DNA of 59,732 nt, filler included, from Stramenopiles sp. TOSAG23-3 (GCA_900128585.1; 12 parts of 12 records of this genome joined end to end with filler, not necessarily neighbours in it), one strand, 5' to 3'. Shown: positions 2,187 to 39,981, counted from the first letter of the whole stretch. Program-made: numbers and translations. Notes: a model not told the origin generated them from the sequence alone.

Positions 2187-4466
2187 TTATATGTTGAAGG
2201 TTGTTCTTTGACGTTTTTGCGGCCTGTCATTCGAGGGCCGGCCTGCACCCCTCGAAGATGGGCCTGCACCACTCGCGGACGGGCCTGCACCACTTGTGGA
2301 TGACTCTTGAAATGCTTCATGTTTCACACATACATCGTCCAGCGCGTAGAGTTTTGTGGCATAGTAGTTTACATTTTCATTCATCACCATTTCGAAATCT
2401 GGTGCCCAATACTCGTTGTCCCCGACAATGTTGCCACTTTCATCTCGCAATCTACCGTACTTTTGTTCGTGCCAATATTCTCCCCAGCCAACCTCAACCC
2501 TCCAACCTGGACCAGAGTCCTTCATCTTTGCACAGTCCGCGCACGAGCAAACTTCCCCCATTTTTCGAACGTCATCAACGACGTAGTGCTCATCGACCTT
2601 GTGTTGAAACACATCATGTATACTCCACGCATCGTCATTCTCTACGTCGGTGCCCCGGAACGACTCAATATCCGGGACCTGTTCTTTGAGAACATCGTCG
2701 TACGATCGAGACTTTGAAGCTTTTAATATGGTCAAACCGACCGCCGTGGCCATTTGCACAGGGACGGCATTGTTGACAGTCTTGTACTGCCGTTCAAGTT
2801 TTCCAGGGAAAATAACATAGTCTGGTATACCTTGCATGCGAGCGTGCTCTCGAACAGTGAGCAACCGTTTCCTATTATAGTGGACCATCTTCGTATTCCC
2901 ATAGCAAGTTGTACCAGGATATGCTTTATGAACCTGGTTTAGACAATGGTCTATTGGGTTAATTATATTCCCATCAACGTCCCGGCTGCAGTTTCTCGTC
3001 ACTGTTTGATGGTTCCAAACGACTGGAACGTACAGCTTTCCGTTCTCCGACCTGTGCTGCAGCCTTTTTATTTCAGCCTTTAATGCATTGCCTTCCATCG
3101 TTTCAAACACATGTTCCTGGCGCATTACACGCGCATACTCCGATGTCTTTTTCCCGTTCGGGTCAGACCTTTCCTTATAATATGGGCAAGCCAAGCTGTC
3201 CTTGCTTAAATCAAACGGCAGGTCCCCAATTGCATCTAACATTGTGACATACGGTTTCAAGCTATGTCCAAAACAACGAGGACCATGTGTCTTAACCGGG
3301 GGGTCGGGGAGGGTGTAGTCTTCCTTCGCCGCTATTATCACACAGCGTTTTCGCTCTTGTGGGGCCCCAAAATCTGCAGCATTCAGCATGTTCATGCTGA
3401 CTTGGTAGTCCATTGACAATAGTTGAAAAATAAGCTTTTGTACAGCACCATCTTTATTACCTGAAAGGTTCTTGGTAGTTATGTTAGGAACCATTTCCAC
3501 CACTATATATGTGGGATTTAAACACTTTACAAACCGTGGCGTTGTGTCCACGTAATGAAGTTGGTCATCAAGTTGTGAGTTGGGTAGTTGGCTTGCCCGA
3601 ATCGCCGCCATTGCATTCGCCCCCGAGAACGCTTGGCAAGGCGGCGAGCAATGCAAAACATCAAAGGATGTCATGTCCACCTTTACTTTTTTATTGCTCA
3701 TATATAGATCTTTTAGGTGGGTTGGGACATCCTCCAGCGATGCCAAATGCAGCTGAATTGTTTGGACAATATGTTCCCCCCGTTCTACAGCTTTTTCGAA
3801 CTCCTCCAAAACCTCAATGGCATCCCTTTGGATGACAGCGCAGTCCGGGTGGATTTTTTCATAAACACTTGAAGCATAATGGCAGCGTTCTAGCCCAACA
3901 CCAGAGAAAATGCCGGCTTTGCGTAAGCCCAAGGCGTTTCCTCCAGCTCCACAAAACAAATCAAAACTGTTCATTGTTGTTCCTGCTAGGTCTTTATTCT
4001 CATAATCGAAAATTGAGGGGAGCTTCAACCCTTCTAAACGAAGGAATTCTTTCGTTTCTTTCTTGCGGGGTTTTGTATACACACACGAGCCGCTAATTTG
4101 ATTTCTTATTACGAACCGACACCCTGCGACATGTTCTTTTTTAATATCAATCTCTGTTCCAATGACCAACGCAGCTTGATCCGTGTCGTTGGTGAGATCA
4201 GCTAAAGTAGAAAAGGTTTTTTTTTGGTCTAAGTTTAATAGTAACTGATCTTTCCCACTAATTTTTGGGAGAGGTCGTTGAATTGACCACACCGCATTGC
4301 CTGGGACCAGGCGATACCAAATTGTGTTAATAGTCGTTACTCTGTCCAGGTTTATATACACTTCGTACCCTTGATGATCCGCCTTTAATATTTTTCTGAT
4401 TGGCCTTCTTACCACAGTAAAAAAATCTTCACCGCCATCGGTTGCGGTTGATTCGTTCCCGCTCAT
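2187..4466 (-). CDS. C5 cytosine DNA methyltransferase (DNMT1/DIM-2/RID-like catalytic domain) with N-terminal extension and C-terminal chromo-like region
   Basis: Motif I DLFCGAGG, IV SPPCQAFS, VI EMV, VIII QERKR, IX LTVREHARMQGIPD, X YKTVNNAVP. First ATG at 4466; the frame is open to 4541. Confidence 0.9.
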   Translation of the reverse strand: MSGNESTATDGGEDFFTVVRRPIRKILKADHQGYEVYINLDRVTTINTIWYRLVPGNAVWSIQRPLPKISGKDQLLLNLDQKKTFSTLADLTNDTDQAALVIGTEIDIKKEHVAGCRFVIRNQISGSCVYTKPRKKETKEFLRLEGLKLPSIFDYENKDLAGTTMNSFDLFCGAGGNALGLRKAGIFSGVGLERCHYASSVYEKIHPDCAVIQRDAIEVLEEFEKAVERGEHIVQTIQLHLASLEDVPTHLKDLYMSNKKVKVDMTSFDVLHCSPPCQAFSGANAMAAIRASQLPNSQLDDQLHYVDTTPRFVKCLNPTYIVVEMVPNITTKNLSGNKDGAVQKLIFQLLSMDYQVSMNMLNAADFGAPQERKRCVIIAAKEDYTLPDPPVKTHGPRCFGHSLKPYVTMLDAIGDLPFDLSKDSLACPYYKERSDPNGKKTSEYARVMRQEHVFETMEGNALKAEIKRLQHRSENGKLYVPVVWNHQTVTRNCSRDVDGNIINPIDHCLNQVHKAYPGTTCYGNTKMVHYNRKRLLTVREHARMQGIPDYVIFPGKLERQYKTVNNAVPVQMATAVGLTILKASKSRSYDDVLKEQVPDIESFRGTDVENDDAWSIHDVFQHKVDEHYVVDDVRKMGEVCSCADCAKMKDSGPGWRVEVGWGEYWHEQKYGRLRDESGNIVGDNEYWAPDFEMVMNENVNYYATKLYALDDVCVKHEAFQESSTSGAGPSASGAGPSSRGAGRPSNDRPQKRQRTTFNI

Positions 4467-4828
4467 CTTTAAAGAGTGGGACGGAATGCTTTGTTTTCTC
4501 TCTCTTATATATAAATAAAACCACTCAGTAAAATTCTGCAAAAAGATCTTTTCGTGACTTGATTTAATTTGAAATCAATATACAAAAAGATCAATTAGTT
4601 TTCATTTCTTTTTTGTTAGGTAAGTAAGTAAAAAATATGAAAGAGTTTTCTTATTAATAATTATTATACTAAAAAATATAAAACAAACTAAAACAAAAAA
4701 ACAAATAAAACAACAACCTCGAACGCCAACTACGTACAGTATGATACGCGTATCATTATACCAATAATATTAGACCTATTATACATTTAGGAACAATGAA
4801 AGAGGAGGAAACAATTGATGAATTCTAT

Positions 4829-4914: not shown

Positions 4915-5014
4915 NNNNNNNNNNNNNNNNNNNNNNNNNNNNNNNNNNNNNNNNNNNNTTAATTAATTAANNNNNNNNNNNNNNNNNNNNNNNNNNNNNN
5001 NNNNNNNNNNNNNN
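4915..5014. other. Artificial contig-joining spacer (N44-TTAATTAATTAA-N44). Identical spacers at 9925-10024, 14933-15032, 19932-20031, 24928-25027, 29922-30021, 34911-35010, 39882-39981, 44851-44950, 49818-49917, 54782-54881
   Basis: The same 100-bp linker, with stops in all six frames, recurs about every 5 kb and contig lengths decrease steadily. Internal scaffold gaps without the linker lie at 11436-11565, 12588-12599 and 16599-16664. Confidence 0.98.
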
Positions 5015-5383
5015 TCTGATCGATTGTCCTGAAGTCAGTATAAGTACATCATAAACCTTAACTATATCTCTGAATGACAGCTGTGAGTTTCTATAGAATG
5101 AGGATTCTTTGTGTTCTTTCACTTTCTTTCTTTGTGATTACAAATGATAATTTTAGATTCTGAAGAGGGAGAAAAAAGAAACGCCTTTGTAGGTTCTTAT
5201 GTACGTAATTAGGTAAATATTTAGATCGATAGGTTTACTATACCAATCGTATGCGGTTGGTTAGTGTTAATACACACAGAGCCACACACAAGAGAGAGAG
5301 GCGGGCAGGGAAAGGGGGGTAGTTGGTTATTGGTACCGTGTTGTTTAACTCTGTACGCCCACATACCCTGCCAATCTTGTTCT

Positions 5384-7432
5384 ATGGAAAACAACGTTAG
5401 CGCCGTCGTGTTAGCGCTCGCGGAGCGGGTCGCGGCCGTCGAGGCCAAACTTGTGGCGTACAAGTCGTCAACGGAGACCATGTTCCTTCTAAGGGCGTCC
5501 TACGGTATCTTCTTCATGCAGCTCGGGTTTTGTCTCTTGGAGGCGGGCTCGGTGAAGGCGAAAAACGTCAAGAGCATCCTGTTGAAAAATGTTCTCGACA
5601 CGCTGGTTACCGGCATCGTCTGGTATTTGTGGGGGGCGTACGCGTCCAACGCGTTCGCCGCCACGCCCCCGGAGGTCCCAACGATCGGGGGGAAACCCCA
5701 AAGCGCGGACGCCTTCGCAGCGTGGGCAATAACGTTTACGTTCGTCTCGTGCTCCGCCACCATCGTCAGCGGCGGGGCGGCCTCGCGGATGAAGACCGTC
5801 CCGCACATGTTTATCACCTTCATTGTGTCCGGGTGGGTGTACCCGGTGTACGCGTACTGGTTGTGGGGCGTGGATGGGTGGCTGCACGGCCTGGGGGCCC
5901 TGGACTACGCGGGGGGGAGCAGCGTTCACATGCTCGGGGGGGTCGGGGCCCTGGTCTGTTCCGCCGCCGTCGGGCCGCGGTACGGCAGGTTCATTCGCAG
6001 CCGTGGGGGGGTCGTGAGCATCCGGGACATGAAAGGGCACGACGCGGTTGCCAAGCTCACCGGGGTCCTCATCCTATGGTACGGTTGGCTGAGCTTCAAC
6101 GGGGGCTCGGTGGGGTACAAAGGGAATGACGCATACATGCAAGGGCTGGCAACGACCAACACGATCGTGTCCGGGAGCGTGGGTGGGATGGTCGCCCACC
6201 TTGCCAGGCTAACTTCCGGCGAAACGAGCCTGGCCGCGGTCGGGAACGGCATTTTGGCTGCCCTCGTCGGGATCACCCCGGCGTGCGGCTTTGTCCCCGT
6301 CTGGGCGGCGCTGGTCATTGGGTTGCTCAGCGCAGTAGCCGCGGAGAAGACGGCCGCGGTGCTCATGCAGTACAACATCGACGACCCCGTGGACGCGTTC
6401 GCGACGCACTTCCCGTCCGCGGTCATCGGGATCGTGTCCGTGGGCTTCTTCGCCGAGCCGGCGCGGACCGCCGAGTACGCCGACCTGCCGAACGGGTTCT
6501 ACGGGCTGTTCATGGGCGGGGGCTGGCGCCTGCTGGGGGTTCAGGTGCTGACGTGCGTGGTTGTGACGGCCTGGTCGCTCCAGCTCGCCGTTATCTTGTT
6601 CGTCTACAAGCGGGCCTCGCCCAAGCTCCCGGGCTGGGCGAAGCTGCGGTACACCAAGTCCGAAGAGAAGGGGGGCATCGACAGCAGGTTCCACGACGGG
6701 TACGCCTACCCAGACCAGATATTTGTGCCCGACGACGGGCGTCTCGCGACGGACCGGTTGACAAGGGTCCGCGGGGAGAAGAAGGCAGGTGAGAAGGCCT
6801 CCGCCGGGGGCACAAACTTCAACGACACCATACTAGAAATCCCCCCAGTGAACCTGTCGCTGGGGGGTAAGTTTTTTGTGCGCGGGGCAAACTCCAGCGA
6901 CGTGTCCTCCATCTTCGACGTCGTCAATGCGGCGTACGGAGTGGAGAAGGAAACCCCTGGTGACACGGACCCGGCCCGGGTCTCGTTTAAAGATGGCGCG
7001 ATGGAACGGTTTCAGACCCACGACGAGGTCAGGAGATTGATGACGGGCGGGAAGGCCAAAGGGTTCGTCGTCCTGGAAACCAGCGAGATCAAAGTGGTCG
7101 GCGTGGCGTTCGTGGAAGAGACAAAGAAGAAATCGGGCGCTTTCGTCCTCGGGCCGTTGGCCACCCACCCGGGCTTTCAGGGCGAGGGCGTATCCCGGAA
7201 ACTGGTGGGGGAGGTAGAAGCGCACTGCATTAAGAACGGGGGAAAGAGCCTCGAGGCTCGTGTGGTGAACTGGCGGACCGATTTGACGGAGTTCTACGCA
7301 AAGCTTGGGTTTTTAGAGGCTAGTTCAAAGGTCAAATTCCACGGCCACACGGTCCGGGAGGGAACGTACATGGTTCCCTTTCAGAAAAGTTTGAAAGACG
7401 GGAAAGTGTCCCCAAGGACGCAGTCGGACTGA
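5384..7432 (+). CDS. AMT: Ammonium transporter (Amt/Mep/Rh) fused to a C-terminal GNAT acetyltransferase
   Basis: Amt motifs FFMQLGFCLLEAG, LDYAGGSSVHMLGG, LWYGWLSFNGGS, DDPVDAFATH and EEKGGID..FHDGYAYP. GNAT motifs LGPLATHPGFQGEGVSRKLV and FYAKLGF. One continuous ORF; ATG at 5384. Confidence 0.93.
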   Translation: MENNVSAVVLALAERVAAVEAKLVAYKSSTETMFLLRASYGIFFMQLGFCLLEAGSVKAKNVKSILLKNVLDTLVTGIVWYLWGAYASNAFAATPPEVPTIGGKPQSADAFAAWAITFTFVSCSATIVSGGAASRMKTVPHMFITFIVSGWVYPVYAYWLWGVDGWLHGLGALDYAGGSSVHMLGGVGALVCSAAVGPRYGRFIRSRGGVVSIRDMKGHDAVAKLTGVLILWYGWLSFNGGSVGYKGNDAYMQGLATTNTIVSGSVGGMVAHLARLTSGETSLAAVGNGILAALVGITPACGFVPVWAALVIGLLSAVAAEKTAAVLMQYNIDDPVDAFATHFPSAVIGIVSVGFFAEPARTAEYADLPNGFYGLFMGGGWRLLGVQVLTCVVVTAWSLQLAVILFVYKRASPKLPGWAKLRYTKSEEKGGIDSRFHDGYAYPDQIFVPDDGRLATDRLTRVRGEKKAGEKASAGGTNFNDTILEIPPVNLSLGGKFFVRGANSSDVSSIFDVVNAAYGVEKETPGDTDPARVSFKDGAMERFQTHDEVRRLMTGGKAKGFVVLETSEIKVVGVAFVEETKKKSGAFVLGPLATHPGFQGEGVSRKLVGEVEAHCIKNGGKSLEARVVNWRTDLTEFYAKLGFLEASSKVKFHGHTVREGTYMVPFQKSLKDGKVSPRTQSD

Positions 7433-7686
7433 GAAACAGAAAAGGGGGGGGGGCAGGGTCGTTTCATAAATTTAACACACCTAAAAAATTGCATCATCAT
7501 ACATACACGTTTTGGTACGTAAAGAAGGAATAAAAAAATTGTTTTTAGTTAATCTAGAGATAATTTTTGTTTTTTTTTAGAGTTAATAGAGCAGGCACGC
7601 AGTGATGGAAAACACCCATTGCCGATCGCTGGCCTTTGCGGGGCCTGCCTCCCCCAAGGTTCCTGCGAGCTCCAGGTTACATCATC

Positions 7687-9453
7687 TCACGTCATCGGAA
7701 AAGGCTCGGCCTTGCCAGCGTTGGGGCCGTCGCTGTAAAACAGGAGCGGTCGGTAGCTCTCTGGGGCCCCCCGCACCACGTTCGTTTTCAAAAAGTGCTG
7801 GATCAGGTTCCCCTTTCCCTGTATCCTTCCATACTTTATGGCGCAGATCTTGTGCGACTTGAACTGGGACCAGTTCCGATTGTTGAACTCGGTGAAAAAC
7901 TGTGCCGTCGTCTTGCTGTTCAAGAAGTTAACAAAAGAGTACCCAATGTTGCACTTATTCTTGTAGTCCATGGGCAAGTAGAAAAAGTCGTAGCTCCCTT
8001 TGAAGGAGAGGTTGATCTCGTCCAGCAGCATTTGCTGCGTGTAGTTGTTCGGAATGTTCTGAATCATAATCGTGGTCCGTTGGTCCCGTCCCGAAAGGAT
8101 GGAGTCAATGTCCAGCTCGTACAGCTTTCCGGACCGCGGGTCCCGCCGACGGCGACTGTTGCCTTTCTCGGCCTTCTTCGATGCCGTGCTGCCGCCCGCG
8201 GGAAAACTGATCTGGGGTGTGAACACGTTTGCATGCGCGGACATGGCCGGGCGGTGCCCGTTGTCGTGCGGGACCGGGGCGCTGTCCCGGCCGCGCCCTC
8301 CTTGGAGCTGCGGCGCTCCCCCTGCTGCGCCCCCGGCGCCGGTCGTGGACGGGGCGGGAAACGTGGCCGCAGCGCTCCCGAAGGCCATTTGGAAGTCCAC
8401 GCTTTGCTTCATGATGTTATTCAAGAGCGTGTTTGCCGCCGCCATTCGACGCTGCGACTCCGCAATGTGCGCGATCCCTTCCCCGTTTGCCATCTCCGCG
8501 ATCAGCGTCGCTTGCAAGTCGAGCAGCATTTTCTGCTGCTGCCCCATGGTGGCCACGATCGCAGTTACAATTTCGCCCGGGGAGGAGCCCGGGGCGGCGG
8601 CGGTACCCGTGGGGGCAGGGGAGGGCGCGGCGCCCAGCGGCGAGGACCGTTCGTTCTGTTGGCCGTTTGCTTGCATGGAGGTGTGCGCCTCCGTGTACGG
8701 CGACGTGCTGTTGGCCCTCGGCTGGTTCTGTTGGCGCAGCTGCGGCGTGGGGGTCGCGGTCGTCGTCGCCGCCGCAGCGTCCTCGGCCAGCTTCCCCGAC
8801 GCCGGGTCGTAGGTCACAAAGGCGGTGATGGTGTTGCCGCCCAGCTTTGCCCCCCCTTTGTTCATTTTTTGAAGCGCGTCGTACGCTTCGCGAACGTCAA
8901 AAAATTCTGCCTGGGCTGCCTCTACGTCCACATCCCTTACGTTCCCGTACAATGAGCAGAACTGGAACAGCCGCTCCTTCGTGAACAGGGGGGGCAGGTT
9001 TCGCAGGGTGATGGTCCCCCGCACGGGGTACGGGTACTGCGGGAAAAATGAACTCGCCAGGCCGGCGTCGGCTTTCAAAATCAAAAATGTTATGGTGATG
9101 ACGCAGTTCTGCAGGGTTCTCCCGTTGAACCGCTTCCTCGTGTCCTCTGCGCTCCGTATGTCAAAAAAGTGGACGACGATGAGCCCCAGCCGCTTCCGTT
9201 CGGTCGTCACTATGGTGTGTATGTCCCCAAGCTGCGAAAACAGCGCTTTTATGTCGCTGTCCCTTATTTCCAAGGGCAAGTTCCGCACCGCCAAACTTCT
9301 GGACAGTTTCGAGCTGGACGTCTGCGGCCACGAGCCATCGCCCCGGGATAATGCTTTGTTGGACGCTGGAAACGTCGGCAAAGAACGTGAAAACGAGGAA
9401 CGACGGGACGACGACGACGATGGCGTTGCCGACCACACCGAGTCCCCGAACAT
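7687..9453 (-). CDS. mei2-like: Mei2-like RNA-binding protein (two N-terminal RRMs plus the Mei2-type RRM3)
   Basis: RTTIMIQNIPNNYTQQMLLDEI...YDFFYLPMDYKNKCNIGYSFVNF...KICAIKYGRIQGK. RRM1 SRSLAVRNLP...VHFFDIRSAE. Start uncertain (ATG 9453; frame open to 9486). Confidence 0.92.
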   Translation of the reverse strand: MFGDSVWSATPSSSSSRRSSFSRSLPTFPASNKALSRGDGSWPQTSSSKLSRSLAVRNLPLEIRDSDIKALFSQLGDIHTIVTTERKRLGLIVVHFFDIRSAEDTRKRFNGRTLQNCVITITFLILKADAGLASSFFPQYPYPVRGTITLRNLPPLFTKERLFQFCSLYGNVRDVDVEAAQAEFFDVREAYDALQKMNKGGAKLGGNTITAFVTYDPASGKLAEDAAAATTTATPTPQLRQQNQPRANSTSPYTEAHTSMQANGQQNERSSPLGAAPSPAPTGTAAAPGSSPGEIVTAIVATMGQQQKMLLDLQATLIAEMANGEGIAHIAESQRRMAAANTLLNNIMKQSVDFQMAFGSAAATFPAPSTTGAGGAAGGAPQLQGGRGRDSAPVPHDNGHRPAMSAHANVFTPQISFPAGGSTASKKAEKGNSRRRRDPRSGKLYELDIDSILSGRDQRTTIMIQNIPNNYTQQMLLDEINLSFKGSYDFFYLPMDYKNKCNIGYSFVNFLNSKTTAQFFTEFNNRNWSQFKSHKICAIKYGRIQGKGNLIQHFLKTNVVRGAPESYRPLLFYSDGPNAGKAEPFPMT

Positions 9454-9803
9454 CGAGGAACGAAACGCGTGCGTGGTACTGGCCAATATAGATATATCAA
9501 CGTGTGTGACAAAGAAAGAAGTGTGGGATGGATGGATGGATGGATGAAGATGTTTCTATTTATCTATGTATATGGTTCTATTAAACTTTCCTCTTGTTCT
9601 GGTATTTCCGTTTTCTGAAAACCTATCTCTTCTTCAATCTCTCTCTTACTTGTAACTTCTTTTGGAATCCTAGAAATTTGTAATTACCAAGAAGAAGAAG
9701 AGAAGAAGAACGGAAAGAAGAAGAAGAAGAAGAAGAAGGAAGAAGAAGACGGAAAGAAGAAAAAGAAGAAGAAGAAAAAGAAGAAAATCATTATATTATT
9801 TTT

Positions 9804-9849
<46 letters not shown>

Positions 9850-10024
9850 TATATTATTATTATTATTTGGTAATAATAATAAAAAAAGAGAAGATGACGA
9901 CAATACTACTATTATAATTGGGGGNNNNNNNNNNNNNNNNNNNNNNNNNNNNNNNNNNNNNNNNNNNNTTAATTAATTAANNNNNNNNNNNNNNNNNNNN
10001 NNNNNNNNNNNNNNNNNNNNNNNN

Positions 10025-10546: not shown

Positions 10547-11935
10547 ATGCGTACGTTTGTATTGTTGTGCGCCGCGTTGGCTGTGCTCCAAACAGTCACT
10601 GCTATGACCGGCCCCCCACCGGGCTGGCCGGACAACAAAGAAGATTGCGAAAACATGGAAGGAGGATTTTGGCAAGAAGATCGTCACCGTTGTGAATCGG
10701 AAAGCATGTGTAACCATCTGGGAGGACGTTGGGACGCCAACCGATGCGAATTGGAAGAAGAAGGCGAATCGGACGGGCCGGACAACAAAGAAGATTGCGA
10801 AAACATGGAAGGAGGATTTTGGCAAGAAGATCGTCAACGCTGTGAAACGGAACTGTTGTGCAACGAACATGGAGGACAATGGACCGGAGTCCGATGCGAA
10901 TTTGAAGAAGGCCACCATTCGACTACGGCCTACCCAGGCCACCATTCGAGTACGGCCTACCCAGGCCACCATTCGAGTACGGCCTACCCAGGCCACCATT
11001 CGACTACATCAGAGCCCTACTACACACCATCTGAAAAGTGCGCTAAATCCGGAGGTATTTGGCGTTGGGATGGCCCTGATGGATGGTGCGACCATAGTGG
11101 CACGAGTCACGCAACGACTGCCGCACCACACCACCATTCGACTACGATCTCTTACTGGGAACAAAGAGCACGCGAGTGTACCATGCACGGAGGAAAATGG
11201 CATTGGCACGGCGCCGATTATGGAATTTGTGAACACAGTGCAACAACTACGGCAAACCCGAACGGTTACTGGGAACAAAGAGCACGCGAGTGTACCATGC
11301 ACGGAGGGAAATGGCATTGGGATGGCCATAATGGATATTGTGAACACAGTGCAACAACTACGGCAAACCCGAACTCTTACTGGGAACAAAGAAAACACGA
11401 ATGTGATTCATCCGGAGGAAGTTGGCATTGGGATGNNNNNNNNNNNNNNNNNNNNNNNNNNNNNNNNNNNNNNNNNNNNNNNNNNNNNNNNNNNNNNNNN
11501 NNNNNNNNNNNNNNNNNNNNNNNNNNNNNNNNNNNNNNNNNNNNNNNNNNNNNNNNNNNNNNNNNAAAACACGAATGTGATTCATCCGGAGGAAGTTGGC
11601 ATTGGGATGGCCATCAAGGATGGTGCGACCACCATTCGACGACTGCCCACCCAGGCCACCATTGGACTACACCGTACCCAGGGCACACCGGCCACCATAC
11701 GACGACTGCCCACCCAGGCCACCATTCGACCACAGCCTACCCCCATACCACCACAGAACACTATGGCAACGATTGCATAGGAGATCAATGCTGCGGCGAC
11801 GGGACACAGTTTGAGAATGGAGTTTGTGTACCGACGTACGAGGGTGTCATGGACGCATGCCGCGAGGAACGCAAGGAATGGGGATGGACATGCGAAACAT
11901 CTTGCCCAGCAGACGGAGCGAACGGCGACATTTAA
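10547..11935 (+). CDS. Secreted His/Trp/Cys/Thr-rich repeat protein (CxxxGGxW modules); assembly gap at 11436-11565
   Basis: Signal peptide MRTFVLLCAALAVLQTVTA, two ~50-aa units, HHSTTAYPG units, 38-aa YWEQR..EC...GG.WHW units and a Cys-rich C-terminus. Confidence 0.85.
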   Translation: MRTFVLLCAALAVLQTVTAMTGPPPGWPDNKEDCENMEGGFWQEDRHRCESESMCNHLGGRWDANRCELEEEGESDGPDNKEDCENMEGGFWQEDRQRCETELLCNEHGGQWTGVRCEFEEGHHSTTAYPGHHSSTAYPGHHSSTAYPGHHSTTSEPYYTPSEKCAKSGGIWRWDGPDGWCDHSGTSHATTAAPHHHSTTISYWEQRARECTMHGGKWHWHGADYGICEHSATTTANPNGYWEQRARECTMHGGKWHWDGHNGYCEHSATTTANPNSYWEQRKHECDSSGGSWHWDXXXXXXXXXXXXXXXXXXXXXXXXXXXXXXXXXXXXXXXXXXXXKHECDSSGGSWHWDGHQGWCDHHSTTAHPGHHWTTPYPGHTGHHTTTAHPGHHSTTAYPHTTTEHYGNDCIGDQCCGDGTQFENGVCVPTYEGVMDACREERKEWGWTCETSCPADGANGDI

Positions 11936-12488: not shown

Positions 12489-13780
12489 ATGTCGGCGAGC
12501 TCTACTTCGTCCTTGGTCTGCATCGCGCTGGCCTTGCAAACGGTCACCTTTGCGGCAGGGGTTACTTATAACTTTTCTGAGCTTGGCNNNNNNNNNNNNA
12601 CAAATCGCTTTCTAATTTGGCATCAGGAGACGTCCTTCTTTTCCCTAACACTACGTTTTACATGATGGGAGGCGTGAAGGCTGAGGGTTTGACGAACGTT
12701 ACGATTCAATTCGATGGGACAATTCTGTTTTCGAAGGATATGAAATCATGGCCGCGCGACGGCGCAACGACGAAAGCGCATGTGCACGAGTGCATGCATT
12801 TTATCTCTTGCGACCACATGACGTTTACGTCTTCCGGAAAGGGATTGATCGACGGCAACGGGGCAGTGTGGTGGGGCATTCCAGGGATTGGATATTTGGC
12901 CCGGCAAGAAAACCGACCGCGACTTCTGAACATAGAAAACGCAAAGCACAACCTTGTCGAAAATATTATTTTGAAGAATTCTCCATACTGGACGTTTTGG
13001 GCCCACGGTGTAGAATTCTTGGAGGTTCGAAATGTCGACATTTCTGCTCGGAGGACGGAGAGCGACGGCCACGGTATCATTGACCTTACAGCCTTTAACA
13101 CCGATGGCTTCGACGTTGCAGGGTCGTACGTTTGGATACACGATTGCACTGTTTGGAACCAGGACGATTGCGTTTGCGCCAAAGACGGCAGCCAGCACAT
13201 GTTGTTCGAAAGAATAAATGCCAGCGGACTTGGACTCACCATCGGAAGCATAGGTGGGTCTACTAACAAAAATATAACCTTTCGAGACATTTACATGCAC
13301 AAAACTTACAAAGGCGTTTACATGAAGTTTCGTGATTTGGACAATGGTGGAATAGTCGAAGATGTCCTGTACGAGAACATCGTCATGGACGAGCCCGAAC
13401 AGTGGGGCGTATGGATTGGCCCTGCACAGCAATCTGATTCTGACAATCTCTGCGCGGCGCACCCCTGCTCGATATGTTGGCCGGCCCTTCCAGAAAAGTT
13501 TGCGCCGTGCATGAGTGGAAGTGGTCGCTACAGAAACATTACATTGCGAAACATAACTATTCGCAATTCGAAGAAAAGTCCGGGCGTCATCATAGGAAAC
13601 ATGTCGACGCCCATGACAAACCTCACGTTTGACAATGTAAAGTTTGTAAACCCTGGGTCAAAACCATGGGGTTCGGACTATTACAGATGCAGCGGTGTTC
13701 AGAATGGAGTTGCGGTTGGAGACACGTGGCCCGTACCGAACTGTTTTAAGGACATGACAAATCGATCGCCATCGCCTTGA
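12489..13780 (+). CDS. Secreted GH28 (polygalacturonase-family) glycoside hydrolase; the frame break coincides with the 12-N gap
   Basis: Signal-like MSASSTSSLVCIALALQTVTFAA, then IDGNGAVWW, RPRLL, NSPYWT, FNTDGFD, NQDDC, GLTIGS and NITFRDI. Confidence 0.9.
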
Positions 13781-14932: not shown

Positions 14933-15206
14933 NNNNNNNNNNNNNNNNNNNNNNNNNNNNNNNNNNNNNNNNNNNNTTAATTAATTAANNNNNNNNNNNN
15001 NNNNNNNNNNNNNNNNNNNNNNNNNNNNNNNNATCAGAATAAGAACAAGAGAGTGAGACAATATAAAAGAATTGAAAGTATGCGAAGAAAACGTCGATTG
15101 TTGCATCTTGACTATAACGTAGATTGAATACTTGATCCACGATATATTTTCTCGCTTTGTGGTTCTTTCATTTTTTCGGTTCAGTTTCCCTTTGATCAAA
15201 GTACAC

Positions 15207-16400: not shown

Positions 16401-16854
16401 GACTATAGCGGGCGAAAGTCTTCGAAGAGCAACATCCTATGATAGGGACGACTGGCAATTCATGCAATGGGGGCTGTTTCATGTTTGAGGACATGGTGGA
16501 GGAGGTGAAGAGTTCGCCCGCCGGGTGCAACCGAAGGTTGTGGAGGGTGGCAGTGAGAGTAGTATAATAGTAGTAGTAGAGAGAAGGAGGAGAGAGAGNN
16601 NNNNNNNNNNNNNNNNNNNNNNNNNNNNNNNNNNNNNNNNNNNNNNNNNNNNNNNNNNNNNNNNTTCTTCTTTCTTCTTCTTCTTCTTCTTTCTTCTGGT
16701 GGTTGCGATTTGCGATCTATTATCGATGGTGTGATTCGTGATTAGTACCAAGCACGAGACAAAAGCGGAATACATTTGCAGGTTAGAAAAATCCGTCAAA
16801 TGTATATCGTACCTCACAGCAGGTGTTCTCAGCAGGTTTTCTTCCCCCATCTCG

Positions 16855-19566: not shown

Positions 19567-20529
19567 AGTTATTTAATTACCAAAGGGATACTCGTTCCTT
19601 CGGTCAGCGGATTCGTGGATGCAATTTATGCTGCAAACAGCCGTTGCAATGCAAAAAAATCACGGGGTGCAAATGACAATAAGAAAACGGTGGGTACATT
19701 CTGTCCGACTAAAAATGATTCAAAGCACCACAAACTCAAACTCCAATACACTATATATTATTCGTAGTATACATTGAAAATAGAAAACATACCACCCACT
19801 CACCCACTCACTTCTTGTTTTCTGAGCTATTTACATGTGGACCACTTTTCCCGGACACTTTTTTTTTCGCAGTAAAATTGAAATATATTATAATATTCCT
19901 TAATATTAAGGATATAATGTAAATGGCCACTNNNNNNNNNNNNNNNNNNNNNNNNNNNNNNNNNNNNNNNNNNNNTTAATTAATTAANNNNNNNNNNNNN
20001 NNNNNNNNNNNNNNNNNNNNNNNNNNNNNNNAATTTGATGAATTTCTTGTCTTCCACAGTCATTATTTGCTCGATTTCTTTACGCTTTTGTCGTAATAGT
20101 CCTCGTATTTGTTTAGGTACTACTTCGTAAAACAACAGTTAAAAAATATTATCTTCTTTTTTTCCCCCTTCTTCCTTTTTTCTGTGTAGTATTTAATAAT
20201 AGTGGTGTGTGGTGTGTATATTTATAAATATTATAATATTCTTCCAAATGTTATTGTGATGGTGGTGTGCGGTTAATTTATTATTATTTTTTTATTCAAT
20301 TTTTTTATATACACAGTAGTAATAATAATACCTACCCGGAATGAAGGAAGTACGGAACGAAAACCAAATAATATTTTTTAACTTTTCAATGTTGGAATCT
20401 GTTGAACCGATTGCTTAAGCGAACAAAAAAATTGTTTTCCAAGCCGACAAAAATTGAAGGAAAGAAACCGAGGCTTGATCATAGAACTTCAAGAAGAAAA
20501 AAACCCTAGCTTCTTGCTTTTTCCCCATC

Positions 20530-24828: not shown

Positions 24829-25027
24829 AAAAAGAAAAGAAAAAAGAAAAGGTAAAACCGTTCAAGAACCCAAACTCCTCCTTGTTCCAGAATAAAACTT
24901 CTGGTATTCATCATTCAAACTATCATANNNNNNNNNNNNNNNNNNNNNNNNNNNNNNNNNNNNNNNNNNNNTTAATTAATTAANNNNNNNNNNNNNNNNN
25001 NNNNNNNNNNNNNNNNNNNNNNNNNNN

Positions 25028-29374: not shown

Positions 29375-30021
29375 TCGACTCTTTCTTTCTTTCTTTCTTT
29401 CTTTCTTTCGTCTGCCGTCTATTAAATTATTTTTTATTAAATAATTAAATATTTTTTCGTTCTTCTTCTTCTTCTTTCTTTCTTTCGTTCTTCTCCCAAC
29501 TAATAACTACAGTACCAGGTATTACTATACATATTACATTATAATCTAACTAACGAAGGAAGAAGCGCAACAAACAATAAAAATAAAAATAATAATAAAA
29601 TTATTAATAAAAATAATAAAAAAGAAAACGAGCAACTAAAATATATTTAAATACTAATCAACACACACACACACACTTTAACCATCATGAACAACAAAGA
29701 AAAGAGCAGGCATTGGTAGAATTGAGACCACTCGACTTTAGAACATTTTTGCCTTTCATTTGCATTAGAGTACATTTTACAACAGGTACTACCTATCAAC
29801 CAACCAACCAACCAGCATGCGAGTGGGGCTGGTTTGGTGGTGCGTGTACGCCTGGGCCGGGCTTCTGGGTGCCTTGGTCCTGTGCGACCCCGCGGCGGGG
29901 GCCCCCCCCCCCCCCCCCCCCNNNNNNNNNNNNNNNNNNNNNNNNNNNNNNNNNNNNNNNNNNNNTTAATTAATTAANNNNNNNNNNNNNNNNNNNNNNN
30001 NNNNNNNNNNNNNNNNNNNNN

Positions 30022-32433: not shown

Positions 32434-34910
32434 TTATCCACACCCCCACCTATACAGTAATCGGTCTGCATCTTCAAAAGTTTTGATTTCATGCACAGTA
32501 CCAAAACCCTCCTGAATTTGGGGCGCAACGAAGCGTTTTTCAAAGCTCTTAATTATTTTCATTTTCGAGGCCGCAGTCCCCGCTTTAATTGTTGGATGGT
32601 TCGTTCTTTTCGCAACGCGTTCACTACACACCAACGCAGGAAAATTGAAAAACACTGCTGCGGTGTGCTTTGGTTCTGGAGAAAACATGGTCTCGAGAAG
32701 TTCCTTTCGTTCTTCTACGGTAACATTGCAGCGGTCAACAACGACATGCTTGCCCCCCCCCCCTCCCTCTTCGACTCTTTCCGTTGCAGTGCTTTTGTAT
32801 TAAATTAAAACACGCTTTGCGACCCAAATCATCTTGATTGCAACGAACAAATTCGCCATGGCCATTCAATACCATTTGTTTTGCAAAAGAGCTTTTCCCA
32901 CTTCCGGGAAACCCGACGAGAACGATGTATTTTGGACATCGCTTTCTTGCAGATTTTCGTGCTTTCATAGCGTCTATTTCCGCTTTCTTGAGCTTTGCTT
33001 TGGTCCTAGACGTGCTTTTCTTGCACGAAACTTTCAGATCGTTCAACATGTCAGATGCCGATTGGAAGCCTTCTTCCGACTCGGAAGAGTTTTCCGACAG
33101 TTGACGCACCAATTCCAATGGCTTCAGATCACCACCTGCCATCAATGCACTGTTCTTCTCACGGTCTTCCATGTCCTTTGCAAGCCTCTTCCAAAGGAGC
33201 TTGGAATAATCTCGAATGAAACGTTCTTGGCGCTCAGTTTCTATAGATCCTGGGCGCCGAGAGCGGACGATTTTCATCACGCTTTCACTGTTCAAGAAAT
33301 GGGGAGCTGCGCTGCCAGCCCCAGCTTCGTCTGCCTCAATTTCTTTCTTGACTTGAGAGAGGATACCATTTGATCCGTACCGAAGCAGCAGACAACTAAT
33401 TACGGTGCCTGCTCGACCCTTCCCTCCCCCACAATGTACCATTACTTTCCCACCTCTCAAAATTTCCATTCGCACCGTTTTCTCAATCAATACCATTTGC
33501 TCTATAGACGGGGGGTTGTAGTTGGGAACAGGGACAAACATGTTTCGTATTGACTTCGTATGTTGAAACCAGCTTTCGTTCAAAGGCTCTTCTTCCGTTA
33601 AAGTGATTATCAAGGTAACTCCAAGGGCCTGTAGCGCGAGCACATGATTTTCGTGTTTGGGAGTCGAGGAGGCTGCAACCTCATCAGGCAAAATGAAGGA
33701 AAAGTTTCGCATCATTGTGATGCTCTTTTCTACTGTACCTTTGCCCTCTGGTGTTGCGACCTGCACTTGCAGCCTTTCCCGAGGGTTTGGCGCAGCATTG
33801 GAGGCGTGGACCAAATGCCCATGCCTTTCAAATGCAGCCTCCACCTCCTTCATGCATCCCCGTAAGTATTCGTAAGAATAGTCGACATCAATCTGATTTT
33901 TCTCCATTTTTCGTTTCATCCAATGGCCATCTTCTATGTTTTGTATAAAATCAGACCGGACCAGCTTGCAGCGGCTTCTGTTCCACTTCCTATCATCCAT
34001 GCGAAGGTACACCCCCTCCACTGTCCCACCATCCGTTCGAAACTCAGACTTTGTTTCTAAAAGGGGCAGCAATTCCAATGGGTCCCTAAATTTGCGCTTC
34101 GTGATTAGGGGGACGACAGGAATAGGAGATTGCTGCAAATCAAACCCAAGCTTTCTTCCAGCGTTTTTTATGGTCTCATGAAACCGCCGGACACTATAAA
34201 ACAAGTCCGTTTCTCGATCGTACAAATCAAATGCAATGAAGTATCCGGGCAGTTTCTTGTATGGAATGGAATGCCGAGCGACGCACCATTCACCGTACAA
34301 AATATGACGGCCTGGAACGAGCAAGATATGTAAAAATTGGGCATGGGAATCTAGCCACAAGTCCAGGGATCCGTATTGAGGGGAATCAGCACTACAGACG
34401 TACTTGGAACGGTTTTGGCACAAAAAGTTCCCGTCGTAGCCAATAGAAATCCCCAAGTTTGCACCATCGATCTTTTCTTGAACATAGATTTCAGTTTTTC
34501 CGTCGCAAAACTTTGCAATATCGTTCCTGCTGAGCAAAAGATCGTCTCTGGTAATTGCCGACTTGACGGTAGCGGCTTTTGTTCGCTGGGACCCACGCGT
34601 TTGGCAGCCCCACTTAGAACTGTCACTTTCCGACGCATCGTAGATATGCTTGGTCCTGGGGAACTTGCGGAACTGCGGCATTGCCTGGTTTATACCGAGC
34701 TGGGACCTGCATTGCCGCAGGAGCAGTAAAATCCTTTCTCTACGACGGCAAGCATTTGCTTTGACCTTTTGCTCTTCCGATAGGCTGTCTTCCATCCCAA
34801 ATGCCTGCTCCAAGGTCGGAAGGGCCTCGCTGTAGTCGCCCATTCGCACCTGGGCTGCGCCTTTGAACGATACTATCGCCGCAACAAGATTTTGCAGGTC
34901 CACCAGTTCG
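32434..34910 (-). CDS. Multidomain RNA-repair protein: TPR, ATP-dependent RNA ligase, Cys-based (DSP/PTP) phosphatase and P-loop polynucleotide kinase. 5'-truncated, with a one-base frameshift in the G11 run at 32753-32763
   Basis: Ligase KFPRTKH, EKIDGAN, ILYGEW, FIAFDLYD, EGVYLR, KLVRSDF. Phosphatase HCGGGKGRAGT, RPGSIET. Kinase GFPGSGKS, NQDDLG, then VVVDRCN...R.NHPTI...EGF in the shifted frame. Confidence 0.9.
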
Positions 34911-35151
34911 NNNNNNNNNNNNNNNNNNNNNNNNNNNNNNNNNNNNNNNNNNNNTTAATTAATTAANNNNNNNNNNNNNNNNNNNNNNNNNNNNNNNNNN
35001 NNNNNNNNNNGCAGGCAGACAGAAGAAAGAAGGAGGAGTCGGTGGGGAAGAGTGGTGGACAGAGGATTTACCACCAAATATTTTTTCTAATCCAAAGCCG
35101 ATTTAGTGGTCAATAATATATTTGATTTAATAAAAGGAGCAACCCTCACAC

Positions 35152-39881: not shown

Positions 39882-39981
39882 NNNNNNNNNNNNNNNNNNN
39901 NNNNNNNNNNNNNNNNNNNNNNNNNTTAATTAATTAANNNNNNNNNNNNNNNNNNNNNNNNNNNNNNNNNNNNNNNNNNNN

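Follow-up and report, generated by a model that had tools for sequence, protein, structure and literature searches.

An ammonium transporter joined to a GNAT acetyltransferase domain in a single gene of a probable MAST-4-like marine stramenopile

Introduction

To our knowledge, Amt proteins that carry a fused cytoplasmic module are the only known dedicated ammonium receptors, and the two that have been characterised, one with a histidine kinase and the other with a diguanylate cyclase, are both bacterial. The stretch of DNA analysed here (the window: 59,732 nucleotides, filler included, from the assembly of Stramenopiles sp. TOSAG23-3, GCA_900128585.1) contains, at positions 5384..7432 of the forward strand, a reading frame that a preliminary description, made from the sequence alone, took for an ammonium transporter (Amt) fused in frame to a GNAT N-acetyltransferase. 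If the two domains are indeed made as one polypeptide, why should an ammonium transporter end in an acetyltransferase: as an output for ammonium sensing, as a regulator of its own pore, as a passenger, or as an enzyme for the amine that it imports? The answer depends both on whether the fusion is real and on what each half has kept of the residues that mark its family.

On the first point we are almost certain. The locus is a genuine single-exon eukaryotic gene, its source probably a MAST-4-like marine heterotrophic stramenopile, and it encodes one polypeptide: a receptor/AMT1-class Amt, N-out and with 11 helices, in which the N1/N2 ammonium site is complete and the twin histidines, the Phe gate, the Trp/Ser recruitment residues and the conserved Asp are intact; a canonical cytosolic C-terminal region; a disordered tether of about 45 residues with one conserved 17-residue motif; and a cytosolic GNAT domain.

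Results

One gene encodes both domains

The coding frame is open from 5264 to 7432 as a single forward-strand open reading frame (ORF), and translation from the ATG at 5384 gives 682 amino acids, with the stop codon at 7430-7432. Because the fused relatives described below begin at the same aligned position, we take this ATG to be the true start. A scan of the window for runs of N found none within 5015-9924, and the claim that the Amt continues into the GNAT domain with neither stop nor gap is borne out by one uninterrupted ORF. The motifs named in support of that claim are all present in the translation: LDYAGG at residue 173, SVHM at 180 (with H182), SFNGGS at 237, ATHF at 340 (with H342), FQGEGVS at 598 and FYAKLGF at 637. 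GC content at third codon positions is 0.87, 0.77 and 0.75 over the three parts of the coding sequence, and the flanks have overall GC contents of 0.39-0.42.

That the coding sequence at 5384..7432(+) is a single exon is indicated not only by the ORF and by the start common to its relatives but also by sequence assembled from public libraries. Twenty of the 24 runs listed (seven studies, marine) contain at least part of the stretch, and 16 of these 20 are recorded as RNA. Contigs from four runs were aligned to the window, with no joints, insertions or deletions reported in any of them. A contig of 1514 nt from library X1 is colinear with 5973-7486, with two differing letters and no gaps, and takes in the second half of the Amt, the tether, the whole GNAT domain and the stop; with a further interval at 5257-5915, contigs of this library cover 5257..7486 on the forward strand and give no transcript ends. 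A 287-nt contig from X9, an oligo-dT library, covers 6648-6934 and runs from the C-terminal region of the Amt into the GNAT domain. Contigs from X6 (6412-6827) and X7 (6581-6817) end in the tether and do not bridge into the GNAT, so that bridging contigs come from two of the four runs (X1 and X9). In these two, the Amt-GNAT junction, for which sequence spanning 6700-6900 had been proposed as the check, is crossed unbroken. None of the four runs has any depth over about 5115-5214 or over 7515-7814, X9 resuming from 7815, and these gaps are usable neither as transcript ends nor as a sign that the libraries are free of DNA.

The same architecture recurs in diverged relatives. Among the best 120 of 228 homologues surveyed for domains, PF00909 occurs together with GNAT Pfam domains in three clusters, P0002 (99% identical, 682 aa), P0003 (51%, 680 aa) and P0004 (39%, 733 aa); a fourth fused lineage is represented by the full-length P0302 (708 aa), which has both domains and of which P0005 and P0006 are fragments. 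The fusion is thus found as single ORFs in four sequence lineages at 38-52% identity. Eight of the ten members of cluster 1 have the full 682 residues and come from ENA, JGI, Logan and EukProt, and all nine members of cluster 2, 51% identical to the window protein, have 680 residues, one of them being labelled 'Stramenopile-MAST_4' by its source. The window protein is also a EukProt entry in its own right, and on these grounds a MAST-4-like source is probable. A scan of metagenome contigs yielded four loci, three of which (L001-L003) are single ORFs of 680, 733 and 733 residues on independent contigs; the fourth is cut by a contig end. Locus L001, of the MAST-4-labelled lineage, has a Mei2-like gene at 2646-4307(-), downstream of Amt-GNAT and convergent to it. 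Because this gene is 51% identical to the Mei2-like gene in the corresponding place in the window, we consider L001 orthologous and syntenic to the window locus; the neighbour of L002 is unrelated to the Mei2-like gene.

A FastTree phylogeny of the Amt parts of 119 rows unites the four fused proteins in a single clade with a Shimodaira-Hasegawa-like support of 99, a topology that fits a single origin of the fusion. The sisters of this clade are the long-branch Amts P0007 and P0025. P0007 (757 aa), the closest unfused Amt lineage, has a C-terminal extension of some 280 residues of its own, without a Pfam match at E up to 1e-3, and it may be that the Amts of P0007 and of the fused clade gained different cytosolic tails.

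Conservation along the protein is uneven. Identity of the window protein to P0003 and P0004, respectively, is 58% and 46% over the Amt core, 68% and 60% over the C-terminal region, 13% and 13% over residues 446-476, 59% and 47% over residues 477-493, and 48% and 38% over the GNAT domain; judged by these values, both halves are under constraint and the tether (residues 446-476) is not. Counting the fused forms is beyond the searches made with the GNAT part. A word-based search with residues 470-682 returned the protein's own cluster only, and one with the fused-clade GNAT alignment returned four fused-clade fragments only, a method too insensitive for such a count; and the best 150 of 273 matches in the search of representative proteins described below include no full-length Amt-GNAT, fused proteins apparently not being representatives there, so that this search does not count them either.

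The Amt half is complete and its pore looks conductive

The Amt/Mep domain occupies residues 34-442 (5483..6709, forward strand), where Pfam PF00909 (Ammonium_transp) is matched from position 2 to 399 of its 399 positions (E 4.4e-80; 269.8 bits against a cut-off of 23.2). The protein is therefore a member of the family, and the preliminary description was right to call the Amt complete. Among solved structures, matches include Mep2 (5aex, E 8e-43) and Ks-Amt5 (6eu6, E 1e-37), the former being the best over the full length, with an alignment that extends through the C-terminal region to residue 454. The AlphaFold2 (AF2) model of the full-length protein has 11 long helices, within residues 30-414.

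To ask how far the residues of the pore have been kept, we used an alignment of 69 rows, comprising five fused and 64 unfused homologues. The twin histidines H182 (5927..5929) and H342 (6407..6409) are His in all 69 rows and align with the pore histidines of Mep2. F120, F238, W161, S242 and D174, which we take to be the counterparts of the Phe gate (F107/F215), the recruitment site (W148/S219) and D160 of AmtB, are kept in all five fused sequences and in 63-64 of the 64 unfused ones. The pore of Ks-Amt5 has been reported to be occluded by F27, Y30 and F34 (PMC10433425). Because the window protein has F49, L52 and S56 in these columns, of which only the first is bulky, at a position that is Phe in at least 90% of the family, we see no argument for a blocked pore; on these residues the pore is probably open and conductive, and the Amt probably still transports.

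The third transmembrane helix (TM3; segment 5729..5788, forward strand) departs from the family pattern. Positions 116, 117 and 134 are Phe (64 of 64), Gln (59 of 64) and Glu (64 of 64) in the unfused homologues; in the five fused proteins they are I/F/Q/Q/Q, T/S/S/S/S and Ser throughout, the window protein having I116, T117 and S134 and keeping the gate residue F120. The replacement of the usual Amt motifs by ITFTF and ASR, as first described, is therefore real and is a change of the fused clade. We considered whether these changes are tied to the GNAT fusion and rejected this: the sister Amts P0007, with its different C-terminal extension, and P0025, which is truncated, also lack the Glu, reading Ala and Gly at position 134.

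Ahead of the first transmembrane helix lies an extension, residues 1-30 (5384..5473), which is predicted to be helical (the model has a helix at residues 2-56) and is probably extracellular. It carries an N-x-[S/T] sequon at residues 4-6, N4-V-S in the window protein, NTT in P0003 and NST in P0004, which is thus kept in three lineages, and on the model the segment may be an extracellular glycosylated helix. An amphipathic helix with a consensus of roughly LLE+VAxLE, together with a sequon, precedes TM1 in all fused lineages. The established topology of Amt proteins is N-out, C-in (PMC10433425); because the 11-helix model and the conserved sequon fit this topology, the GNAT domain would lie in the cytosol.

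The Amt belongs to the receptor/AMT1 class

Pflueger et al. (2024; PMC11152129) proposed a set of N1/N2 ligands for ammonium receptors, with the signature QX6EX15NX2D[F/T]X54-60TX2[S/T]. The window protein has its first half in Q46, E53, N69, D72 and T73 (5519..5602), which align with Q22, E29, N45, D48 and F49 of Sd-Amt1 and, from the Glu, Asn and Asp, with E31, N47 and D50 of Ks-Amt5, and its second half in T126 and S129 of TM3 (5759..5770), which align with T104 and S107 of Sd-Amt1. Of 121 homologues, 23 contain the first part of the signature. For residues 30-200 the best matches among solved structures are Sd-Amt1 (E 6e-19) and Ks-Amt5 (E 5.5e-18), followed by Mep2 (E 8e-13). By its residues the window Amt is a member of the receptor/AMT1 class, a class whose signature does not separate receptors from transporters.

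A retained C-terminal region is followed by a variable tether and a short conserved motif

The transporter ends in a canonical cytosolic Amt C-terminal region, residues 421-445 (6644..6718), LRYTKSEEKGGIDSRFHDGYAYPDQ, in which R422, G431 and D433 are invariant over the 69 rows. Against this background the fused clade has changes of its own: position 429 is Lys in all five fused proteins and Leu, Asp, Ile or Glu in the others, position 425 is Lys or Arg in all five and Asp, Glu or Pro in the others (K425 and K429 in the window protein), and position 436 is Phe in the five and acidic or aliphatic elsewhere.

Residues 446-476 (6719..6811) form the variable tether, predicted from the low confidence of the model to be disordered. 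The tether leads into residues 477-493 (6812..6862), NFNDTILEIPPVNLSLG, a motif of 17 residues that is conserved across all fused lineages in a linker otherwise unconserved, that has low confidence in the monomer model, and that one might reasonably guess to be a short docking motif. The full-length model, built from the 69-row alignment, in which only five rows cover the GNAT domain, has a mean predicted local distance difference test (pLDDT) of 83.8 and a predicted template-modelling score (pTM) of 0.70, with a pLDDT below 50 and almost no secondary structure over residues 449-493. Since the C-terminal region of the Amt ends near residue 445, the early estimate of a linker of about 50 residues was accurate. 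A prediction of the complex between residues 1-448 and residues 470-682, run without the alignments of this analysis, scored 0.00, which speaks neither for nor against docking.

The GNAT half resembles a working enzyme

The GNAT domain covers residues 494-670 (6863..7393, forward strand); its first strand, GGKFFVR, starts from residue 494, that is, from nucleotide 6863, within two bases of the start at about 6865 originally given. Three Pfam models are matched above their cut-offs, PF13673 at residues 543-655 (E 5.8e-9; 36.4 bits against 23.6), PF00583 at residues 557-643 (E 8.2e-8; 33.0 against 20.7) and PF13508 (E 1e-6; 29.4 against 27), which places the domain in the GNAT superfamily. Modelled alone with 121 aligned relatives, it has the standard GNAT fold (pLDDT 87.4, pTM 0.81). 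Structural comparison with VIA-align gave Z scores of at least 8 for 994 of 1000 chains, with GNATs throughout the rows shown and Z scores of 18-20 to many of them, among them 1wk4 (Z 20.1; root-mean-square deviation 2.1 Å over 166 aligned residues) and PaiA (1tiq, Z 19.6). RimI, Ard1/Naa10 and the phosphinothricin and methionine-sulfoximine acetyltransferases are tied with these at 10-22% identity, and Foldseek agrees; the neighbours are thus tied across acetyltransferases of amino acids, polyamines and protein N-termini. Of solved structures, the one that best fits the family profile is YpeA (E 9e-15), which aligns with the C-terminal core alone.

An exhaustive search with residues 470-682 against 1.84 billion representative proteins returned 273 at E ≤1e-3 and 7 at E ≤1e-10, and the best 150 of the 273 show a subfamily that consists mostly of stand-alone proteins of 160-240 residues. 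Its consensus, roughly VNxAYxVE...F...R...GPLAV.P..QG.G.G...VVN.RT.L..Y..LG, is followed closely: R500, D506, N515, Y518, E521, F535, R542, Q599, G602, R631 and Y638 are all subfamily-conserved positions kept in the window protein. The acetyl-CoA pyrophosphate-binding motif, Q599-G-E-G602-V-S604 (7178..7195), has the Gln of 109 and the Gly of 111 of the 121 rows in the subfamily alignment, its last position being Gly in 101, Ala in 16 and Ser in 3; the corresponding motif is QRRGVA in P0003 and QNKGIG in P0004. Y638 (7295..7297) is Tyr in all 121 rows, at what we presume to be the position of the general-acid tyrosine of many GNATs. By these residues the GNAT half looks like a working enzyme with an acceptor of its own.

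In the tree of GNAT domains, the window protein groups with P0003, P0004, P0302 and P0122, and then with the stand-alone P0124, P0127 and P0147. P0122/P0303 (183 aa, 45% identical) nests inside the Amt-fused clade; it may be a piece of a further fused gene or else a secondary split, and its 24-kb contig is not among the four loci of the metagenome scan. Members of the same broad subfamily have been joined to other partners, namely an EamA/DMT transporter, which has the GNAT at its C-terminus (P0210, P0304), a PAS-GGDEF bacterial protein (P0181), further copies of the domain itself (P0123, P0125, P0130) and, in P0238, a Swiss-army-knife RNA-repair protein with R2K ATP-grasp, HAD_SAK and DSP phosphatase domains, which the GNAT terminates. 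All of these lie outside the Amt-fused clade and represent independent fusions; P0210/P0304 (PF00892 + PF00583) is a second transporter-GNAT fusion of separate origin. The window itself encodes, at 32735-34903(-), a Swiss-army-knife protein with RNA ligase and PTP-SAK domains, which is different from P0238.

Discussion

A proposed coupling of the acetyltransferase to the ammonium transporter

What the joined halves do can be stated with far less assurance than that they are joined. The view that we favour, tentatively and as having a little less than an even chance of being right, is that the protein works as an Amt-coupled cytosolic acetyltransferase, transceptor-like, with the GNAT domain as its output. 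The trimeric Amt would hold three GNAT domains at its cytoplasmic mouth; ammonium occupancy or flux would be read out via the C-terminal region together with the conserved 17-residue motif; and this readout would modulate the acetyl-CoA-dependent N-acetylation of the acceptor that the GNAT subfamily uses elsewhere, presumably a soluble one. We favour the GNAT as output because its acceptor-side residues are kept and because the Amt belongs to a class that has twice given rise to receptors. For the first of these reasons the domain probably acts on the acceptor of its stand-alone relatives and not on the Amt, and because the pore looks conductive and the Amt probably still transports, a transceptor would describe the protein better than a pure receptor.

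A more specific version, in which NH4+ at the N1/N2 site switches the GNAT through the remodelled C-terminal region and the pre-GNAT motif, would make this the first ammonium-gated acetyltransferase; we regard it as possible but doubtful. If it were true, uncultured marine grazers that are abundant would turn external or phagosomal ammonium directly into an acetylation signal or metabolite that depends on acetyl-CoA, and the receptors of the Amt family would have a new class of output beside phosphorylation and c-di-GMP.

Several observations weigh against a sensing and signalling role. The ligand residues of the N1/N2 site are common in unfused homologues (Q in 47, E in 53, N in 64, D in 48, T in 64 and S in 64 of 64), and the spacer from D72-T73 to T126 has 52 residues, two short of the published X54-60. 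The signature also occurs in plant AMT1 transporters, which share its cluster, and may mark bifunctional proteins, Mep2 being placed in cluster 1 (PMC11152129). Because AMT1 transporters carry the signature and unfused Amts commonly have the ligand residues, the class assignment is no proof of sensing. The tether, predicted to be disordered and unconserved, is unlike the helical linker/HAMP of Sd-Amt1, which makes mechanical coupling doubtful, and the pTM of the full-length model gives no sign of a fixed arrangement between the domains. The acceptor is named by none of the resources consulted: NCBIfam models score far below their cut-offs, ESM Atlas returns generic bacterial GNAT clusters, and Foldseek, VIA-align and the profile search of solved structures give ties. 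The CoA motif has one deviation from the subfamily pattern, S604, where 117 of 121 rows have Gly or Ala. Finally, the contigs that provide the RNA evidence are assemblies from libraries in which DNA may be present as well; they show presence and colinearity, not a measured transcript.

The suggestion of a transceptor that couples ammonium or amine sensing to acetylation thus fares unevenly: the complete set of N1/N2 ligands and an N-terminal half nearer to ammonium receptors than to Mep2 speak for it, and this support is limited by the presence of the signature in true transporters and by a tether predicted to be disordered in place of a helical coupler.

Alternative roles for the GNAT domain

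The direction of control could instead be reversed, the GNAT regulating the transporter, either as a tethered sensor of acetyl-CoA (and so of carbon or energy state) or by acetylating lysines of the Amt C-terminal region, and thereby opening or closing the channel. In prokaryotes GlnK/PII regulates Amt proteins, and Mep2 and plant AMT1 are controlled through phosphorylation of their C-terminal region; fusions of PII to Amt provide a precedent within single polypeptides, 12 rows with PF00543 and PF00909 forming one clade among the best 120 of the 228 homologues. A C-terminal region that has been retained, with the fused-clade K429 and K/R425, is consistent with this, as is a flexible tether with one short conserved motif, which would suit a module that docks and undocks; and a pore that looks conductive leaves a channel to be regulated. 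However, the acceptor-side residues of the GNAT are those of a subfamily that is mostly stand-alone or otherwise fused, which points to a common soluble acceptor and not to the tail of an Amt, and a domain that has kept both the catalytic Tyr and the CoA motif is not a degenerate module for binding only. We therefore think regulation of the channel unlikely, if still to be taken seriously; a GNAT that gated the channel would do in a eukaryote what GlnK does in prokaryotes.

Fusion might also serve only to fix stoichiometry, or to hold an acetyltransferase at the membrane where the Amt resides, with co-expression and co-localisation but no allostery between ammonium and acetylation. The disordered, unconserved tether and the full-length pTM of 0.70 are what such an arrangement would predict, and the GNAT subfamily, having been fused to partners as different as EamA, Swiss-army-knife RNA-repair and GGDEF proteins and to itself, behaves like a promiscuous accessory domain. 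It is harder to explain in this way why the fusion persists, both domains being conserved, in lineages that have diverged to about 38-46% identity, why 17 residues of the linker are conserved (59% and 47% against 13% for the rest), and why the fused clade has changes of its own in the C-terminal region. Because the fusion is kept across lineages, the linker motif is conserved and the C-terminal region has changed, we suggest that the two halves interact, and we judge mere co-localisation to be rather improbable.

A third proposal, put forward in the preliminary description, is that the enzyme acetylates an imported amine: in such metabolic channelling, ammonia, methylamine or a similar compound would be acetylated as it leaves the pore. 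The position expected of the GNAT from the topology, on the cytosolic side near the pore exit, would allow this; the EamA-type transporter that carries a GNAT of the same broad subfamily has a 'carboxylate/amino acid/amine transporter' model as its best transporter match; and the fused clade has altered residues at 116 and 117, beside the outer recruitment site. However, the Amt-fused and EamA-fused GNATs fall in different subclades, the TM3 changes are also present in the sister Amts P0007 and P0025 with their different or unassigned C-termini, and the nearest structural neighbours, their scores tied, acetylate amino acids, polyamines and protein N-termini, not small amines. We know of no enzymatic N-acetylation of ammonia or methylamine. 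The conserved acceptor-side residues, moreover, are common to cytosolic stand-alone members, and the proposal gains no positive support from a domain whose acceptor side is that of a mostly stand-alone or otherwise-fused subfamily; we consider it very improbable.

An assembly chimera, a gene-model artefact or read-through of two adjacent genes, which the many N runs of the window and its uncultured-type assembly might bring to mind, is scarcely credible given that 5015-9924 is free of such runs, that the same fused ORF occurs on independent contigs from several sources in four diverged lineages, that RNA-library contigs span the junction, and that frame and codon composition are continuous.

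If the Amt-coupled acetyltransferase that we favour is close to the truth, a conserved eukaryotic Amt with a catalytically intact-looking acetyltransferase would join nitrogen status to acetyl-CoA chemistry in one polypeptide. Heterotrophic flagellates of MAST-4-like type have the protein, and marine RNA libraries from seven studies hold related sequence, so that it may bear on how these grazers handle or sense ammonium; the Amt-GNAT protein would also open a way into an uncharacterised GNAT subfamily whose members have joined several kinds of partner in independent fusions.

Neighbouring genes and other features of the window

The ORFs around the Amt-GNAT gene are long, intron-free and eukaryotic. 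By Pfam they include a PA28 proteasome activator, a DHHC palmitoyltransferase, a JmjC/JmjN protein, a Mei2-like RRM protein, a class II tRNA synthetase, a sugar transporter and a C5 DNA methylase. The window yielded no tRNA genes. The Mei2-like RNA-binding protein gene, at 7687..9486 on the reverse strand (PF04059, RRM_2; PF00076, RRM_1), is convergent to Amt-GNAT and lies outside the fusion, serving as the synteny marker for the comparison with L001. Directly upstream of Amt-GNAT and on the opposite strand, 2187-4541(-) encodes a protein of 784 residues with the C5 cytosine DNA methylase domain (PF00145, E 1e-40).

Pairs of 44-N runs, each pair enclosing 12 bases, recur with an almost exact 5-kb spacing at 4915-5014, 9925-10024, 14933-15032 and 19932-20031, and further such pairs lie at 24928-25027, 29922-30021, 34911-35010, 39882-39981, 44851-44950, 49818-49917 and 54782-54881. 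Three irregular runs are present at 11436-11565, 12588-12599 and 16599-16664. The N runs look like masking or scaffolding rather than biology, and none touches the Amt-GNAT gene.

Comparison with known systems

Amts with C-terminally fused modules are known, the modules being a histidine kinase (Ks-Amt5), a HAMP-GGDEF unit (Sd-Amt1) and PII; a GNAT in this position is undescribed in the literature that we searched. Full-text searches found no description of an Amt-acetyltransferase fusion, in agreement with the preliminary description, which knew of no characterised Amt-GNAT; these searches covered full-text articles, with InterPro architecture listings and older surveys of Amt fusions outside their scope. 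The words 'acetyltransferase' and 'GNAT' do not occur in the main text of either Amt-receptor paper, PMC11152129 being one of them, and other fused forms of Amt are there said to await study (PMC11152129).

The closest parallel to the window protein is with receptors that have a cytoplasmic enzyme at the C-terminus. Sd-Amt1 of Shewanella denitrificans (8qj3, 8qj4, 8qpf), an Amt-HAMP-diguanylate cyclase receptor, is built in this way, and all of its N1/N2 positions align with those found here (Q22, E29, N45, D48, T104 and S107 with Q46, E53, N69, D72, T126 and S129). It differs in keeping the FQ and AER motifs that are changed in the window protein, and in being a bacterial protein whose GGDEF cyclase is driven via a mainly helical linker/HAMP, whereas the GNAT here sits on a tether predicted to be disordered (PMC11152129). 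Ks-Amt5 of Candidatus Kuenenia stuttgartiensis (6eu6), an Amt-histidine kinase sensor, likewise has a fused C-terminal transducer and is reported to lack a HAMP domain; it shares the conserved N1/N2 ligands, and both proteins have all the classical pore motifs. Its output, however, is a kinase, and it is reported not to translocate ammonium, its pore being occluded (PMC10433425), an occlusion for which the residues of the window protein give no sign. Classing the window protein itself as an Amt-like ammonium receptor (AmR) was considered and rejected: the output of such receptors is taken to be a histidine kinase or a diguanylate cyclase, and a GNAT is not a recognised signal-transducer domain; nor does the protein have a structured coupler or the occlusion of Ks-Amt5.

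The Mep2 transceptor (5aex and others) and plant AMT1 resemble the window protein in being eukaryotic and in having a cytosolic C-terminal region that controls activity and, for Mep2, signalling too. Plant AMT1 falls in the N1/N2 cluster (PMC11152129), whereas Mep2 lacks the N1/N2 ligands in the aligned columns, and neither has a fused enzyme. The stand-alone members of the GNAT subfamily have the same conserved positions as the window domain, which differs from them in being fused behind an Amt. In the complexes of AmtB with GlnK and in the PII-Amt fusions, as perhaps in the Amt-GNAT protein, a cytosolic module that reports on a metabolite sits on the cytoplasmic face of an Amt; but the window protein has no match to PF00543 at E up to 0.1, the Amts that carry PII are a clade apart, and where PII is a trimeric signal protein, the GNAT is an enzyme.

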